Source of the DNA: an uncultured candidate division Zixibacteria bacterium
GTDB taxonomy: Bacteria > Zixibacteria > MSB-5A5 > UBA10806
Assembly: GCA_963801605.1 (NCBI GenBank)
Contig: CAWDFP010000006.1
Location: 1,792,001 to 1,856,000 of the forward strand
DNA length: 64,000 nucleotides
Direction of reading: 5' to 3'
The translations under genes were made by a program, and so were the position numbers. Of this stretch, positions 36,230 to 59,737 are shown one piece after another. Position 1 is the stretch's first letter. The number at the start of each line of letters is the position of its first letter. A model generated the notes under the pieces. That model saw nothing but the letters and a program-made list of their open reading frames with translations. It ran no database searches and was not told the DNA's origin.

Positions 36230-36397
36230 GCTCTTGGTCTTTCCCCATGCCAAATCTTAAATATTGGTATCCAATCTGAGATGGCAAGCGCCCATAATTT
36301 GCTTGATTGTTAGTGTAGTTGAGATATATTAAGATAAATAGCGAAATGCGGTGACTTCAACCGGATTCGGCTCAATAAATAAATCAAGATGAGAGAG

Positions 36398-38491
36398 ATG
36401 AGAAAAAAACTCGTTAGTGTTATTATCTTTGCCTGGCTTATCGCTACAGCCAATCTTGCCATCGCATTTACTCCATCCGGGCTGCTCGAAATTCATTATG
36501 TCAACGTGGGTTGGGGAACATCCGTGTTGGTAATAGGCCCTGATGGTACTCGCATGCTCATGGATGGTGGGCGAGACAACATGGGAGTCAGTCGTGTCAT
36601 CCCCTATATGGAATCGTTTAATCTTTTGCCATCAGATGGGCTGACCTATGTAGTTGCAAGTCACCTGCATTCAGATCATATCGCCGGCTTAACGGAAACA
36701 ATGAATGGGGGATATAACGTTTCTGGGGCGGTTTATTACAATGGAAGCGACAATAGCAATACTTACGTTACAGCGTTTCGCAATGCCGCTATAAATCACT
36801 CTCCGGGCGCAATAGTACCATTAGCCCTGGGAGCGGTTATCCAGCTCGGCGATAGTGCCACGGCGACCTGTGTCTGTGCCAACGGATATGTCATCGGTCA
36901 TGGATATGTGCCTGGATCGCATGACGATGAAAATGATCGCTCTTTAGGAATTCTGATCAAATATGGGCGTTTCGAATATTTATTTGCTGGCGATCTGGGA
37001 GGTGGCGAAGGAGATTATGCTTGCACCGGACGGTCAACCAGCCAGGTAAATGTCGAGACAAATCTGGCTCAGGCTATTATGCCCGGCGGCGAGCATCCAC
37101 TGCTGACCGTCGATGGAGTGGAAGTGCTGCACGTTAACCATCATGCCAGCGAAAGTTCAACCAATTCCGATTATATGAATTTATTGACACCAGCAATTGC
37201 CTGCATAGCCGTTGGTGCGGGACAGTCTCCCGATTATATGTTTCCTCGGCATGACGTTGTCAATAATGTGCTTCTGGCCGGTGGGTATTGTATTACAGCG
37301 CCTCCAGCAAAAGTTTTACAGAGCGAGGAGGGATATCCCAGCGGCAGCCTGACAAGTTTTTCGGGTTTCTGTGTTGGAGACATCAAGATTACCACATCAG
37401 GGGTAGCCAATTATACAATTACCGCCGACGGCCAGGTTACTGAGGGCCCGGACGAAAGAATCACTGCCGGATTACCACTCACACTTCCATTCGATGGTGT
37501 CCCGCCGGATAATGTACCTCCATTAGTTTCCGTGGTATCTCCTAACGGAGACGAGCAATGGGCTGCCGGAAGCTGGCATCTTATCACCTGGGACGCCTTT
37601 GATTCCGTTGGGGTAGCATCATACGCCCTTGATTTTTCGTCGAATAATGGAAATACCTGGACGAGTATACAACCGCGTACCGATGGCGATCCCCGTGTAT
37701 TCGGCTGGTCCTTGCCATCCGATACTTCGAGCAATTGCCGGATAAGAGTCACAGCCTGGGATGCCGCCAATAACTTTGCCAGTGACAGTTCATATAGTAC
37801 TTTTGCAATTATAATGTCGCAGGATACAATCGCCCCCAACGCGACCCTTCTCGTTCCAAATGGGGGAGAGACATTGTACTTTGGGGAAATCGATACTATC
37901 AGATGGCTGGCAACGGATAATGTGGGGGTCGCTTCATATTCGTTAAGCTACACTATCAATAATGGTGGAAGTTGGAATACTATTCAGCCTCGCACTCCCG
38001 GCAATCCTCAAATTTTTGAATGGATAGTCCCCACTGTCAGCACAAGCAACTGCAAAGTGAGAGTGAATGCCTGGGATGATGTTCAGCATTTAGCGTCGGA
38101 CATTTCCGATGCGCCTTTTGCGATTACCTATCGCGATAATCAGGGACCGACGGTCGACATTATCCTGCCGGATGGTGGCGAAGTTTGGAGCGTCGGTTCG
38201 CAGCGTTATATATTCTGGAGCGCTAGCGATACCAGCGGTGTTGATTCCGTTTCGCTGCAATATTCTGTTGATGCCGGCGCCAGTTGGCGTATCATCTTTC
38301 CCAATACCCATGATAATTCCGGTTTTTATCTTTGGAATATTCCGGATGCCCGATCCAGGGACGCTCTAATTCGTGCCGTTTGCATGGACACTCATGGCAA
38401 TGTCGGTTCCGGTTCTTCTCAAGCAGTATTCACTATCAGAAAATCCCCGGTAGTGGATCATAACGCCCGAATCGAGCCGTTGGTCAGATAG
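36398..38491 (+). CDS. Secreted ComEC-type metallo-beta-lactamase-fold hydrolase with three Ig-like repeats
   Basis: Signal peptide; YVNVGWG, SHLHSDH, LFAGDL, VNHHASESS; repeats VSPNGDE / LVPNGGE / ILPDGGE with I.W.A.D..GV. Confidence 0.83.
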   Translation: MRKKLVSVIIFAWLIATANLAIAFTPSGLLEIHYVNVGWGTSVLVIGPDGTRMLMDGGRDNMGVSRVIPYMESFNLLPSDGLTYVVASHLHSDHIAGLTETMNGGYNVSGAVYYNGSDNSNTYVTAFRNAAINHSPGAIVPLALGAVIQLGDSATATCVCANGYVIGHGYVPGSHDDENDRSLGILIKYGRFEYLFAGDLGGGEGDYACTGRSTSQVNVETNLAQAIMPGGEHPLLTVDGVEVLHVNHHASESSTNSDYMNLLTPAIACIAVGAGQSPDYMFPRHDVVNNVLLAGGYCITAPPAKVLQSEEGYPSGSLTSFSGFCVGDIKITTSGVANYTITADGQVTEGPDERITAGLPLTLPFDGVPPDNVPPLVSVVSPNGDEQWAAGSWHLITWDAFDSVGVASYALDFSSNNGNTWTSIQPRTDGDPRVFGWSLPSDTSSNCRIRVTAWDAANNFASDSSYSTFAIIMSQDTIAPNATLLVPNGGETLYFGEIDTIRWLATDNVGVASYSLSYTINNGGSWNTIQPRTPGNPQIFEWIVPTVSTSNCKVRVNAWDDVQHLASDISDAPFAITYRDNQGPTVDIILPDGGEVWSVGSQRYIFWSASDTSGVDSVSLQYSVDAGASWRIIFPNTHDNSGFYLWNIPDARSRDALIRAVCMDTHGNVGSGSSQAVFTIRKSPVVDHNARIEPLVR

Positions 38492-38524: not shown

Positions 38525-38667
38525 GCGCGGGTTCCGCCTTTTGTCCCGATGAAATCGGGACAAAAGAGAGATATCCGATTGGGTAATTAGTCGTCCCGAT
38601 TCTTAGGGGCGGAGGCCAATCGGATTTCCGCGTCCCGATCAAGGATCGGGACGGGCGGAACCCGCGC
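38525..38667. repeat. Nested-palindrome intergenic element 1 (four-way junction, REP/MITE-like or ncRNA)
   Basis: 14-bp terminal IR GCGCGGGTTCCGCC/GGCGGAACCCGCGC enclosing three hairpins; GTCCCGAT occurs three times. Confidence 0.8.
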
Positions 38668-38807
38668 GCCTTTGCTATTGGCGATCAATTCCTTTTGACG
38701 GAATTACCCGACGCCGGTTAATCAGATATGGTACTCTTTTTTAGGAACTACCTTAATTGATGGCGGGTTCAAATTTTGAAACGCGAAACTATTTTATAGG
38801 AGGAATC

Positions 38808-39338
38808 GTGAAATCGATAATGTGGTTATTTATGGCGGTAGCGACGATGCTTGTTGCGGGAACTGCGGCGGCTCAATTTAAGGTGGGCGATCAGGCTCCG
38901 GAATTTAAGCTTCCTTATGCGACTAAGGATACTATCATGTTTGACGGTATCAGCTCAAAGGATTTGGCCGGTAAGAGGTATTTATTGGCTTTTTATCCTG
39001 CCGATTGGTCGCCGGGCTGTACAAAGGAAGTATGCCGCTTCAGGGATACGATGTCAGATTTCGAAGCTCTAAAACTAACCGTACTGGGAGTGTCGGTCGA
39101 TAATCTTTTTAGCCATCGGCAATGGGCAATATATGATAACCTGAATTTCAAGCTGCTTTCCGACCAAACGCACAAACTCGGAAAGGCCATGGGTGTCTAT
39201 GATGAGGATCGAGGAGTATTTAAGCGTTCCGTTTTTGTAGTCGGCCCTGATGGTAAATTCGAATATATTAATTATAACTATTCGGTACAGGACGATAACG
39301 ATTTCAATGCATTGAAGAATGCCCTGGCAGCGAAATAG
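38808..39338 (+). CDS. Exported peroxiredoxin (AhpC/TSA, BCP/PrxQ-like)
   Basis: RBS AGGAGG + GTG; signal peptide AAA-Q; FYPADWSPGCTKEVC, GVSVD, RSVFVV. Confidence 0.88.
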   Translation: MKSIMWLFMAVATMLVAGTAAAQFKVGDQAPEFKLPYATKDTIMFDGISSKDLAGKRYLLAFYPADWSPGCTKEVCRFRDTMSDFEALKLTVLGVSVDNLFSHRQWAIYDNLNFKLLSDQTHKLGKAMGVYDEDRGVFKRSVFVVGPDGKFEYINYNYSVQDDNDFNALKNALAAK

Positions 39339-39341
39339 GGC

Positions 39342-40698
39342 TTATTCCGGTTCCGCAATATTGTACTTTTTCATTCTGTAGATAAGCACATGCCGCGGAA
39401 TTCCCAGGCGTGCGGCTGCTTTGCTCTGGTTCCATCCGGTGCTCTTGAGAGCCTCGGTAATAAGTTTGATTTCCGATGAGCTTAAAGCAGACTGGTTATC
39501 ATGAGTAACCAATTGATCTTTGCCCCCGTTATCGGTTTTAATAATCTCGGGTGGCAAATCGGATGGTGTAATTATTTTATCGTCGTTGAATATTATTACT
39601 CGCTTAATTACGTTCTCGAGCTCTCTAATATTACCCGGCCAGCGATATTGAGTTAGAAGCTCCAGAGCCTTGCGGTCGAGTGTCAATTCCCGATTGTTCG
39701 AAAACTTACGCATAAAATGATCGACTAACATAGGAATATCCTCGCGACGGTCTCTTAGCGGAGGGATATTTATGGGAATCACGTTTAGCCTGTAGAACAG
39801 ATCTTCGCGGAATTCGCCATTTTTTGTTTTGCCGGCTAAATCCTGATTGGTGGCAGCGATGACTCTGATATCCACGGCCATACTCCGATTGGACCCGACC
39901 GGCTCGACGACCTTTTCCTGCAAAACTCGCAGAAGCTTGGATTGCAGCTCGGGATGGAGGTCACCAATCTCATCCAGGAAATATGGTACCACCGTCAGCC
40001 AAAACAAATTTCCCCATCTTATCTTTCACCGCTCCCGTAAAAGCGCCAGTGACATGTCCAAAGAGTTCGCTTTCGAGAAGGTCCTTTGGGATTGCGGCGC
40101 AATTTACGGTGACTAACTGTCTGCGCGACCTGTCGCTCGATTGATGAATTGCCCTGGCTATAAGCTCCTTGCCGGTACCGGACTCTCCCGAAATCAGCAC
40201 CGTAGCGTCAGTAGCCGCTACCTTTTTTATGGTAGCGAAGATCTCCTGCATAGCCCGGGAGCTTCCAATGATTTCGGAAAATGCGTTTATGCCGTCGAGT
40301 TCGGTGCGCAACTTGAGATTCTCATCTTTGAGACGTTGAAATTCGAGTGCCTTTTCGATTGTCAGAAGCAACTCATCGCGATCAAACGGTTTGGTGATAT
40401 AATCGTAAGCTCCAAGTTTCATAGCCTCAACTGCTTTTTCAATAGTCCCAAAAGCGGTAATAAAAACGATTGGCAACTCCGGCTGGATTTTTTTGGCCTC
40501 GCCCATAAGTTCGATGCCGTTTAATCCGGGTAATTTCATGTCGCTTATTAAAAGGTGGAATTCCGTTTTGGGTAAAATCTGTAAAGCCTTCTCAGCGGTC
40601 TCGACGGCGGTAGTGTCATAGCCTTTTTGCTTTAAATTATATTCAACGATTCGTCTTTGGGATTCGTCGTCCTCAACTATTAATATTCGGCTCATCAA
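39342..40698 (-). pseudogene. Sigma54-dependent response regulator (NtrC/AtoC-like), +1 frameshift at 39979-39981 (probably an assembly error)
   Basis: REC domain, [26 protein letters not shown] joins LDEIG if one base is removed; WPGNIRELEN, Fis-type HTH. Confidence 0.88.
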
Positions 40699-56620: not shown

Positions 56621-57619
56621 ATGTGGCCAAACTTTACGGATAGTAAACCTATAATATTTGCCCCCATGGCTGGTATCAGCGATTCGCCCGCCAGACAACT
56701 TGCAATTCGTTTTGGGGCGGATATGACAATATCGGAACTGATCTCGTCCGAAGGCATAATCCGGGGATGTCCCAGGACTTGGAAACTGGCCGAGTTTGAT
56801 AAATCAGAGCGGCCCATAGGTTTGCAGATTTTTGGGGCCAAACCGGAGTCTATGGCCAGGGCTGCCATCCAGCTATCCGAATTAAAACCTGATTTCATCA
56901 ATATTAATTTCGGCTGCCCGGCCCGGAAGATTGTGGGCAAAAATGGAGGTAGTTCCATTTTGCGCAACCTGCCGCTTTTAAAGGAGATAGTAACTGCCGT
57001 CGTCCATGCAGTTGATTTGCCTGTGACAGCCAAGATTCGATCCGGTTGGGATAGCAATGAGCTTAACTACAATGAAGTCGGAAAAATCATAGAGGAGGCC
57101 GGAGCTGTTGCAGTAGTTATTCACCCGCGGACCAGGACACAGGGTTTCTCAGGCCATTCTGATTGGCAGGTCATTAAGGCGCTTAAAGATAATCTTGAAA
57201 TAAAGGTAATTGGAAACGGTGATATTTCGTCACCCGAGGACGCCAAGCGGATGCTAGATGAAACAGGCTGTGATGGCGTCATGATTGGACGCGGGGCTAT
57301 TGCTAATCCCTGGCTATTCAAGCGTGTCAAGCATTACCTCGCTACTGGAAAAATATTGTCCGAACCTACCGCCCGTGAGCGGATTGAATTGGCATTAGAA
57401 CATCTTACAATGGAAATCGATTATTATGGTTTGCCTCACGCGGTTTTCAGAATGCGAAGTCAGTTCTGTTATTATCTTCGAGGCCTTCACGGCAACAGCG
57501 ATATAAGGATAGCAATCAACCGACTTCTTGACCCCATCGAAATAAAAAAACTGTTGTGGGAATATGTCGAAATGTTGGAAAACGAAAGTTTTCTTCAATC
57601 GTCGCAAACGGTAAATTAA
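56621..57619 (+). CDS. dusB: tRNA-dihydrouridine synthase B
   Basis: APMAG, NFGCP, KIRSGW, HPRT, GNGDI, MIGRGA..NPW. Confidence 0.93.
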   Translation: MWPNFTDSKPIIFAPMAGISDSPARQLAIRFGADMTISELISSEGIIRGCPRTWKLAEFDKSERPIGLQIFGAKPESMARAAIQLSELKPDFININFGCPARKIVGKNGGSSILRNLPLLKEIVTAVVHAVDLPVTAKIRSGWDSNELNYNEVGKIIEEAGAVAVVIHPRTRTQGFSGHSDWQVIKALKDNLEIKVIGNGDISSPEDAKRMLDETGCDGVMIGRGAIANPWLFKRVKHYLATGKILSEPTARERIELALEHLTMEIDYYGLPHAVFRMRSQFCYYLRGLHGNSDIRIAINRLLDPIEIKKLLWEYVEMLENESFLQSSQTVN

Positions 57620-57639
57620 ATCAACGAAAAATAATTTTA

Positions 57640-58407
57640 ATGAAGCCAAGAGATATAAATATCATCTTAGAAAAAGTAGCCGCTGGCAAGCTGTCATCGG
57701 CAGCCGCGATGAAAAAACTGAATTCGCTATCTTTTGAAAATTTGGAATTTGCCAAAATAGATCATAATCGTTTGGATCGAACCGGTGTCCCTGAGGTCAT
57801 TTTCGCGCCCGGCAAAACCGACGAGCAAATCGTCAAGATATTCACCCGCATGAAAAAAGCTGGAAGCGATGTTATGATCACGCGCGTTGAAAAAAAGATA
57901 TTCATAAAATTAAAATCGAAAAATAAGGGAATTAAGTACAGCGAAATCGCCAGGATAATTTATGAGCCGACGCGACTTAAAGAACCTTATGGCAAGGCAA
58001 CTATAGCCGTAGTCAGTGCCGGAACTGCCGATATGAGCGTCGCCGAGGAAGCCGCCGTAACGGCCGAGGCATTCGGGGCGAGAGTAGACCGCGTTTACGA
58101 TGTTGGAATTGCCGGTATTCATAGGCTCCTGGCACATCAGGATCAAATCAGAAAGGCTCGCGTAGTAATCGTGGTTGCCGGAATGGAAGGCGCCCTGGCA
58201 TCGGCAGTAGGGGGCTTGGTGCAGGCGCCGGTGATTGCGGTGCCAACATCGATAGGTTACGGCGCCTCGTTTGGCGGTCTGGCGGCGCTGCTCTCGATGC
58301 TTAACAGTTGCGCGCCGGGAGTGACTGTAGTAAATATCGATAACGGTTTCGGGGCTGCAGTGGCGGCTCTGAAAATGATACGAGGGATAAATCGGAAATC
58401 CAATTGA
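57640..58407 (+). CDS. larB: Nickel-pincer cofactor biosynthesis protein LarB
   Basis: AKIDH.R..RTG.PEVIF..GK, AGTADM.VAEEA, VAGMEGAL, PTSIGYG, VVNIDNGFGA. Confidence 0.94.
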   Translation: MKPRDINIILEKVAAGKLSSAAAMKKLNSLSFENLEFAKIDHNRLDRTGVPEVIFAPGKTDEQIVKIFTRMKKAGSDVMITRVEKKIFIKLKSKNKGIKYSEIARIIYEPTRLKEPYGKATIAVVSAGTADMSVAEEAAVTAEAFGARVDRVYDVGIAGIHRLLAHQDQIRKARVVIVVAGMEGALASAVGGLVQAPVIAVPTSIGYGASFGGLAALLSMLNSCAPGVTVVNIDNGFGAAVAALKMIRGINRKSN

Positions 58408-58546
58408 CCTGCCGGGCGGCATGCTTCGCTCGATATAAAATATCGAACGTTGTAAAATCCGCAAGGCATGCTCAGGAATAAATTGATTAGGATTTTACTC
58501 TTTCCCCGATCAAGATCGGGGAAAGCAAGCATGCCGCCCGTGCAGG
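58408..58546. repeat. Nested-palindrome intergenic element 2 (same topology as 38525-38667)
   Basis: Closing stem CGGGCGGCATGCTT/AAGCATGCCGCCCG enclosing three hairpins incl. CTTTCCCCGATC-AA-GATCGGGGAAAG. Confidence 0.8.
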
Positions 58547-58576: not shown

Positions 58577-59737
58577 GTGGCACTAGCATATTTTGACTGC
58601 TTTTCCGGCACCGCCGGTGATATGATTATCGGAGCGCTGCTTGACGCCGGGTTGCCGTTTGCGGATTTTAAAGCCGAAATCGACAAACTCGGTCTTTCAG
58701 GTTTCGAGTTAAGCGCCAGGAAAGTGGTCAAAGGGAAAATCGAAGGGACCAAATTTTCGGTTGAGGTGCGAGAGAAACAGCCGGAACGTCAGCCCAAAGA
58801 AGTAACGAAAATTATTTTAGGTTCCAGGCTTGATAGCGATATTAAAGAGAAGGCCGTACGGATTTTTAATCGCTTGGCTGAGGCCGAGGCTATTGCGCAT
58901 GGCGAGACAATTGACAAGGTACATTTTCATGAGGTTGGAGCAGTTGATGCTATCATCGATATCTGTGGAGCGATGGTTGGGCTGAAACTATTGGGAGTGG
59001 ATCGAGTTTATTCGTCATCGTTACCAATGGGCAAAGGAAGTATTGCCGGTTCTCATGGGACGATGCCGATACCGGCGCCCGCGACTGCGGTTCTCGTAAA
59101 AGGCTTCCCCGTAAAAATTACGAGTATCGATATGGAACTTACGACTCCTACCGGGGCAGCAATACTGACTACGCTGGCAGCCTTTTCCGACCCCGGAGAG
59201 TTTTCGATGCGTCAAACCGGATATGGAGCTGGATCTAAATTCCTTTCGGGATTACCGAATCTTTTGAGGGTGATGATTGGGGAACAATCGAATATATTCG
59301 AAACAGATACGATTGCCCTGTTAGAATCTAATCTGGATCGGGTTTCATCGGAGAACTTAGGCGCTTTGCTTGACGAGCTTATGGCCGGTGGCGCGCTTGA
59401 TGTTTTCGCTGTCCCAATTGTTATGAAAAAGAACCGGCCGGCGCATCTTCTTTCAGTTTTATGCGAACCGGATAAAAAAGATAAGTTGGCAAAGATAATT
59501 TTCAGTTCCGGCAAGACTCTGGGAATCAGAATGGGTTCGAGCTCCAGGATGAAGCTTCCCCGAAAACAACTTACGATACCGACATCAGGCGGTGATATTT
59601 CGGTCAAGGTAGCTGAGCTTGATGGCAAAAAGCTTATTTTCCCCGAACATGACGATATAACACGCGCCATGAGGAAAACCGGTTTAAGTTATGATGATAT
59701 TTATTTTGAGATACAACGCGCCATAAGAAAGGAATAG
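58577..59737 (+). CDS. larC: Nickel-pincer cofactor biosynthesis protein LarC (nickel insertase)
   Basis: YFDCFSG.AGDM, VHFHEVGAVDAIID, PAPAT, ELTTPTGAA, MKKNRP, PEHDD. Confidence 0.94.
   Translation: MALAYFDCFSGTAGDMIIGALLDAGLPFADFKAEIDKLGLSGFELSARKVVKGKIEGTKFSVEVREKQPERQPKEVTKIILGSRLDSDIKEKAVRIFNRLAEAEAIAHGETIDKVHFHEVGAVDAIIDICGAMVGLKLLGVDRVYSSSLPMGKGSIAGSHGTMPIPAPATAVLVKGFPVKITSIDMELTTPTGAAILTTLAAFSDPGEFSMRQTGYGAGSKFLSGLPNLLRVMIGEQSNIFETDTIALLESNLDRVSSENLGALLDELMAGGALDVFAVPIVMKKNRPAHLLSVLCEPDKKDKLAKIIFSSGKTLGIRMGSSSRMKLPRKQLTIPTSGGDISVKVAELDGKKLIFPEHDDITRAMRKTGLSYDDIYFEIQRAIRKE

Follow-up and report, generated by a model that had tools for sequence, protein, structure and literature searches.

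Tagless, Probably REP-Derived Doublets with a Predicted Four-Way Junction Fold in an Uncultured Zixibacteria Bacterium and Its Sister Species

Introduction

The closest described systems to the repeats analysed here are those built from repetitive extragenic palindromic (REP) units: (i) REPINs; (ii) the heterodimers of GTAG REPs (Di Nocera et al., 2013; PMC3733652) and the BIMEs of Escherichia coli (Ton-Hoang et al., 2012; PMC3333891); and (iii) the E. coli terminator and stabiliser REP325 (10.64898/2026.03.23.713779). Our comparison with REPIN and BIME heterodimers is drawn from the accessible parts of PMC3116915 and PMC3733652. According to the available text of PMC8266576 and PMC3333891, E. 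coli TnpA-REP requires the tetranucleotide GTAG, and theory, in the accessible portion of its source, holds that REPINs should vanish after RAYT loss (10.1101/2021.07.10.451892). As for function, the available part of one source reports that an E. coli REP terminates transcription in a partial, Rho-dependent manner and stabilises mRNA (10.64898/2026.03.23.713779). Whether and how REPINs benefit their host is an open question, on which the family reported here may bear.

The window, i.e., the whole stretch of 64,000 nucleotides analysed, belongs to the genome of an uncultured Zixibacteria bacterium (G000; 3.06 Mb, assembly 87% complete), whose sister species is represented by an assembly that is 69% complete (G001). 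Two elements are considered in it: element 1 (38525-38667) and element 2 (58408-58546). Element 1 belongs to a family of REPIN/BIME-type REP doublets which is a derived variant rather than a plain member of that class, as the terminal tetranucleotide is missing from it and neither of the two assemblies yielded a cognate RAYT. As in REPINs, two inverted REP units surround a variable spacer, the units are extragenic, doublets outnumber singlets, the family is lineage-restricted and displays compensatory changes, and a homologous REP flanks a RAYT gene in relatives. Unlike REPINs, the family has neither the GTAG tag nor a cognate RAYT that could be found, comprises about 23 copies whose spacers are all unlike, has in each half a hairpin of its own, which results in a four-way junction instead of one long hairpin, and has most of its copies persisting at orthologous sites over near-saturated divergence, and inverting. 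With the GTAG REP heterodimers and BIMEs, as portrayed in the accessible text of PMC3733652 and PMC3333891, it shares unequal partners with different loops, spacers of 20 to more than 100 nt, and a location near 3' ends and between convergent genes. It differs from them in that the terminal tetranucleotide is lost, loop hairpins of 3-13 bp stand as fixed side arms, the closing stem runs into copy-specific paired sequence, and a chimera (element 2) exists. The E. coli REP325, which is our proposed working model, also lacks a poly-U tail and is 3'-proximal; nevertheless, in the available part of its source it is a set of 12 simple units whose action was shown by experiment, whereas the present family is known from sequence and predicted fold.

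A literature search over titles and mainly open-access papers found nothing on Zixibacteria with REP sequences and no title describing this family. New here are the loss of the tag, a RAYT with homologous REPs in relatives, and persistence across species with inversion, together with a family defined by shape only in a third species and the chimeric nature of element 2. A tagless REP-derived doublet that persists at gene borders with precise geometry, while its sequence and direction change, separates a possible host function from mobility. Furthermore, the junction is small enough to be synthesised for use in reporter and binding tests, although the organisms are uncultured and the family is narrow, which limits its reach.

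Structure of Element 1

The original prediction had placed stems enclosing a cloverleaf-like element at 38525-38667 and a twin at 58408-58546. Both sets of stems are there, and both elements are predicted to fold as four-way junctions with z about -10 on either strand. For element 1, the predicted fold has -93.5 kcal/mol and z -10.4 (reverse strand, z -10.0), and none of 200 shuffles folded as well as either element. Folding with DNA parameters gave, as with RNA parameters, a four-way junction on either strand of both elements with z around -10.

Element 1 is a REP heterodimer with its long half first on the + strand. On that strand, its parts are as follows: (i) the left arm of the closing stem P1 (38525-38537), with the core GGGTTCCGC at 38529-38537 and no GTAG tag upstream; (ii) the long side hairpin (38538-38566), of 13 bp with a 3-nt loop, which abuts P1; (iii) the left arm of the inner stem P3 (38570-38582), a GAAATCCGATTGG variant equivalent to the REP tail; (iv) the variable interior (38583-38615), unalignable with its counterpart at the orthologous G001 site; (v) the right arm of P3 (38616-38628); (vi) the short side hairpin (38631-38653), of 10 bp with a 3-nt loop; and (vii) the right arm of P1 (38655-38667). 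Three copies of GTCCCGAT occur on the + strand, as had been claimed, the third of them in the interior. The closing stem had been described as a perfect 14 bp. This is possible, as C38538 may pair with either G38654 (14-bp closing stem) or G38566, but the pattern of the family would assign C38538 to arm 1, leaving a 13-bp closing stem and a 13-bp arm. Taken alone, the short half is predicted to form an imperfect REP-like hairpin; the long half forms no such hairpin.

Upstream, a gene for a 700-aa metallo-beta-lactamase-fold protein with C-terminal Reelin/Ig-like matches (36389-38491, + strand) stops 33 nt before the element. Downstream lies a gene for an AhpC/TSA peroxiredoxin-family protein (38757-39338, + strand), whose start, judged from its sequence, is likely GTG 38808. 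Beyond it, a sigma-54 response regulator (39342-40698, - strand) is broken into two overlapping ORFs, one with the receiver and the first half of the AAA domain and the other with the second half and the Fis HTH; a frameshift or an assembly error is the likely cause.

Known identities were also considered. The absence of a poly-U tail had been correctly noted: terminator-like sites with a U-tail number 0 at element 1 and 0 at element 2, and an intrinsic (Rho-independent) terminator is rejected on that account. A tRNA-like gene is likewise rejected, ARAGORN finding none at the element. The possibility that Rfam would reveal a known family came to nothing: there were 0 matches at gathering score in the window, and at E up to 1 element 1 and 13 of the other copies had only weak miRNA-type matches that fell far short of the cut-off.

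The Family in the Genome of the Window

The genome-wide copy search proposed with the original prediction did find further copies. Element 1 is one of 23 intergenic copies in G000, all between called genes, and each of the 23 is built from one "long" and one "short" half, inverted with respect to each other and separated by a free interior, with the layout GGGTTCCGC-[hairpin]-GAAATCCGA(TTGG)...interior...(CCAA)TCGGATTTC-[hairpin]-GCGGAACCC. Since 22 other copies share the closing stem of element 1, the "structural twin" at 58408-58546, albeit a four-way junction, is not its closest relative. A scan of G000 intergenic DNA by structure only returned 22 junctions, of which 20 were family copies, one was element 2 and one a CGTC-type REP pair, and a shuffled control returned 0; thus, the motif search hid no larger divergent set in G000.

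The geometry was examined in an alignment of 39 elements: 23 from G000, 14 from G001 and two metagenome loci (L157 and L187), six later-found G001 copies of a subtype being excluded. All 39 are heterodimeric. The long arm has 10 bp in 26, in 37 no linker separates it from the closing stem, and the junction linkers measure 0-3-2-1 nt in 21. Watson-Crick pairs account for 349/351 positions of the P1 core and 334/351 of the P3 core, as well as for 392/396 and 277/279 in the side arms, where the best-hairpin search set the arm limits and the percentage is therefore inflated. Neither the P1 core nor the side arms contain any G-T pair, an absence more readily reconciled with repair or selection acting on DNA than with selection on RNA. 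Pairs changed on both sides (26 of 46) exceed 500 shuffles and slid controls in a statistic that ignores relatedness. Nevertheless, template switching is by itself enough to homogenise arms and invert spacers (PMC8604942), and covariation is thus no proof of selection.

Interiors range from 16 to 126 nt. Palindromic repeats of other kinds are present in some of them, one being a repeat also found beside a resident RAYT. No two G000 copies exceed 64% global identity, and near-identical copies are absent from this genome. Among family halves, doublets predominate over singlets and are the better conserved form: at E < 0.01, a single decayed long half lies outside doublets, plus one remnant with P3 only. 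By eye, no flanking direct repeats were seen in the copies, whose outer stems are copy-specific. Throughout G000, several unrelated REP families have short perfect hairpin tips (GTCC-N-GGAC and CCCGAT-N-ATCGGG) inserted in their loops, as though these tips were a module exchangeable between the families.

Two remnants deserve description. At G000:C7:66150-66430, a decayed remnant is circularly permuted (interior, P3, long arm, short arm) and its closing stem is missing, which suggests a circle or tandem intermediate; it lies upstream of the second identical tRNA-Ser copy, and both tRNA-Ser copies of G001 have intact junctions upstream. The other, at G000:C6:1529540-1529800, has two direct copies of the inner-stem arm, and its G001 counterpart is an intact element.

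Probable Origin from REP Units

The family very probably derives from REP units. Each half aligns with the GTAG REPs that flank a RAYT gene in G097 (locus L222; NCBIfam NF047646 for REP-associated tyrosine transposases, 116 bits, cut-off 80), where two GTAGGTCGGGTTCCGA-[hairpin]-GAGAAACCCGAC units border the gene, and G000 itself carries about 20 single units of this GTAGGTCGGGTTCCGA-[hairpin]-GAGAAACCCGAC type that match a family half arm for arm. RAYTs in G002, of the same genus, and in G004 are flanked by related REPs. The REP/REPIN candidate of the original prediction is thereby borne out, by 23 long-plus-short doublets and their likeness to RAYT-flanking REPs.

Head-to-head tagged doublets of the L222 type, GTAGGTCGGGTTCC-[hairpin]-GAGAAACCCGAC, occur in G097, G134, G028 and G233, and a RAYT gene lies between two such units in L222. 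They resemble the family in arm sequences and in their predicted four-way fold, which indicates that the junction arises from the pairing of two unequal hairpin-bearing REPs. Unlike the family, they keep GTAG, and those of G097 have short (about 17-nt), similar spacers, as in an active family. The halves of the family are likely also arranged head-to-head, although their polarity is not certain: one G002 REP matches family halves in the opposite polarity (tail-out), while the G002 junction after the orthologue of the gene upstream of element 1 has an exact REP tail inside, which favours the head-to-head arrangement. An origin from the GTAGGGCGGAACC REP of L118 is rejected, as its outer arm alone matches.

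The tag has gone from the family. GTAG stands upstream of 1/78 halves and GT[AG]G of 3/78, at chance level, compared with 16/19 for the related single REPs in G000. T[AG]G is somewhat enriched (28/78 halves versus 17 in shuffles) and could be a changed tag. The linked RAYT or GIY-YIG gene that had been proposed did not appear: searching G000 with Pfam Y1_Tnp and GIY-YIG turned up a single RAYT and four GIY-YIG matches, none flanked by family halves, and a custom RAYT profile brought in another two RAYT-like genes that Pfam had overlooked, neither of them cognate. Overall, none of the three RAYT-like genes in G000 (87% complete) or the two in G001 (69% complete) is flanked by family halves; they carry other REPs or none, and a cognate RAYT could lie in the missing part of either assembly. 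The idea of a unit moved by an enzyme encoded elsewhere therefore fits the ancestor but probably not the present copies, given the loss of GTAG and the lack of a cognate RAYT in the 87%-complete assembly.

As to the RAYT-like genes themselves, the one at G000:C6:211120-211725 has ATGCCTCAGG palindromes on its flanks, of a type that numbers about 20 in the genome and is also found inside family interiors, and the one at G000:C7:362085-362621, like a similar G001 gene (L239), has no flanking REPs. A short GIY-YIG gene (G000:C6:1489287-1489496) has a tRNA on one side and a partial tRNA-like copy on the other. RAYTs are many in some relatives (L108-L127, L232, L237), with 10 Pfam matches in G002 and 8 in G004, one of the latter IS200-like; most have their own palindrome type, which is unusual, RAYTs being described as mostly single-copy.

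Persistence and Change Across Species

Among 41 relatives, the exact half pattern makes up a family in G000 and G001 alone. Doublets in the genome collection are restricted to Candidatus Zixiibacteriota records, the remaining matches being single and chance-like, and a loose pattern applied to 285 genomes of the phylum returned mostly noise, though it led to the tagged relatives. Among 45 metagenome loci, full elements were confined to contigs with flanks mapping to G000, and no RAYT was seen in the flanks of these metagenome elements. Viral sequences gave one match, not an element.

The sequence retrieved from G001 contains 22 distinct copies, six of them with a compensated closing stem, GGGTCCCGC. 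For 13 of the 22, two of them assessed by a single flank, the corresponding G000 site is also occupied, where about 0.5 would be expected by chance (p about 1e-16 against 23/1046 spaces), and L157 provides a 14th orthologous pair. Of the rest, two stand opposite decayed G000 remnants and seven have no counterpart at the mapped G000 flank, so copies are either dispensable or still turning over; L187 is opposite a 33-nt empty gap. At four-fold degenerate sites of 59 orthologous genes, G000 and G001 are 39% identical, versus 26% by composition; synonymous sites are thus near saturation. At locus L044 (G001:C308), the left and right flanks of an element, across an N gap, map beside two different G000 copies, and this arrangement is either recombination between copies or a scaffold join.

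At the shared sites the hairpins mostly differ, and seven interiors tested aligned no better than shuffles; the G001 orthologue of element 1, for instance, has different hairpins and interior, with its orientation kept. The outer stem extensions often agree between orthologues, which also have a P3 variant in common, indicating one ancestral insertion per site. Five of the 14 orthologous pairs are inverted relative to their flanks.

These inversions bear on whether the elements are an independent structured non-coding RNA family, of 110-220 nt and transcribed from one strand, one of the two candidates put forward originally. The strong predicted fold, covariation above controls, conserved junction geometry, conserved positions and lack of an Rfam match would all suit such an RNA, but inverted orthologues (5/14), copies in both orientations between co-oriented genes (4 versus 5), equal folding of the two strands and the absence of G-T pairs speak against a strand-specific RNA. 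So do interiors free to vary from 16 to 126 nt, with other repeats within them, flanking genes unrelated in function, the clear likeness to RAYT-flanking REPs and the absence of a U-tail terminator. We regard this explanation as highly improbable.

In G002, junctions of the same layout occur with little shared sequence: six in 582 kb sampled, two of which were known beforehand, and two more outside the sample. The structure-only scan found 0 junctions in the shuffled control of G002 and 0 in 160 kb of G004. That the shape persists as the sequence changes, as originally proposed, is supported by the compensated pairs, the orthologous sites and these G002 junctions. Comparison with empty sites was only partly informative: the HIT-fusA site is empty in G002, G003 and G006, and the larB-larC spacer also has empty counterparts, but the sequence at both is too diverged for an insertion junction to be read.

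It is possible, if rather unlikely, that all this reflects an ordinary REPIN population with no shape-specific host function, in which a RAYT (unassembled, or with a changed tag) refills or overwrites favoured sites and the stems are made perfect by template switching. In Pseudomonas chlororaphis, the type of REPIN found at a conserved position changes with time (10.1101/2024.10.14.618302), and here single GTAG REPs are found near sites that bear a junction in G001 or G002. Hairpin tips are common to several REP families and differ from species to species, interiors contain REPs resembling those of a resident RAYT, the two remnants have permuted or tandem parts as if from circles or tandem copies, and the stems are Watson-Crick only. 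Against such turnover, there are neither near-identical copies nor a tag, the outer extensions and P3 variant of orthologues indicate a single ancestral insertion per site, the G002 copies are alike in shape with too small a sequence likeness for a common template, and the junction geometry is fixed.

Gene Context and Possible Roles

Gene contexts were taken from a purpose-made gene caller, with 1046 spaces of 150 nt or more as background. Copies are enriched between convergent genes (8/23 versus 96/1046 spaces, p 7e-4); nine lie between co-oriented genes, with an orientation of 4 versus 5, and six between divergent genes. Sixteen of the 17 copies adjoining a gene end are at most 100 nt from the stop codon, and one copy is located just upstream of a tRNA-Ser promoter-like sequence. 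The 40 genes flanking 20 copies are functionally unrelated. A riboswitch or leader is rejected on the basis of the orientation (4 versus 5), the inverted orthologues (5/14) and the unrelated flanking genes. G000 encodes rho, and two full-length rho genes are present (G000:C4:8088-9326 and C6:733736-734974).

The explanation we prefer, with middling confidence, is that the family originated as a RAYT-spread REPIN, lost its tag, is likely immobile, and has probably been kept at fixed gene borders because its predicted four-armed fold stops transcripts, or shields their 3' ends, irrespective of strand. In the ancestor of G000 and G001, a RAYT would have copied a head-to-head pair of hairpin-bearing REPs around the genome. 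The halves would pair as P1 and P3 and their unequal loop hairpins would be extruded, giving the four-way junction. After the loss of the tag, copies would stay put and no longer multiply, while template switching or recombination via shared stems might perfect the arms, invert the inside and swap hairpins. Finally, junctions that are intact would be retained by selection, most likely because they bring about Rho-assisted termination or protect the upstream mRNA. The role as stop or shield, proposed by analogy with the E. coli REP, is weakened because six of the 23 copies occupy divergent spaces, where no mRNA 3' end is expected.

A role at the DNA level seems quite unlikely, in which an extruded single strand or cruciform, with a 10-bp arm at the closing stem, would be bound by a nucleoid protein, a topoisomerase or another host factor. 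Several observations agree with it: the strands fold equally, G-T pairs are absent, the long arm is about one helical turn, orientation is free and 6/23 copies are in divergent spaces; in addition, REPs serve in E. coli as binding sites for IHF, DNA polymerase I and gyrase (PMC6006769). Nevertheless, copies are enriched between convergent genes and near stop codons. Along the 1.9-Mb contig they are unevenly spaced, with no orientation trend relative to replication direction (GC skew is weak there), and a model E. coli REP gave no chromosome compaction, in the available part of 10.64898/2026.03.23.713779.

A further reading is that of a fully domesticated REPIN lineage, i.e., a transposase-free, genus-wide, shape-defined junction read by a host factor on DNA or RNA, which we consider unlikely. 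In that reading, what would be recognised is a one-turn arm stacked on the closing stem with fixed linkers, a free interior and either orientation, and hairpin tips, and even closing stems, would be exchangeable between repeat families.

The Chimeric Element 2

Element 2 lies between larB (57556-58407, + strand; NF033503) and larC (58577-59737, + strand; TIGR00299, NF052512), both of nickel pincer cofactor biosynthesis. Its first base directly follows the larB stop codon and it ends 30 nt before larC. Its predicted four-way junction has -72.8 kcal/mol and z -10.2 (reverse strand, z -11.0). On the + strand, the left arm of the closing stem (58413-58426) pairs with 58527-58540 and is followed by (i) a first side hairpin (58427-58449) of 10 bp, including one mismatch, with a 3-nt loop; (ii) the inner stem (58452-58460 with 58490-58498) and interior, spanning 58452-58498; and (iii) a second side hairpin of 12 bp (58500-58525). 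Inner stem and arms follow the layout of the main family, while the closing stem matches the GGGYGGCATGCTT/AAGCATG repeat family.

By its sequence, then, element 2 is a chimera, with the inner arms of the main family and a closing stem from another REP family (GGGYGGCATGCTT...AAGCATG). The original prediction had called this closing stem unrelated; it does differ from that of the main family, but its sequence is that of a second REP family present in this genome. The structure-only scan of G000 intergenic DNA returned no other chimera of this kind. G001 has a counterpart of element 2 in the corresponding place; its left stem is identical, its first hairpin is perfect and compensated, having changed on both sides, and a contig end falls inside it. 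The larB-larC spacer is empty in G003, G004 and G005. A second type of chimera was observed in G002 (L342:14499-14664), where a junction has an inner stem from a CGTC-type repeat.
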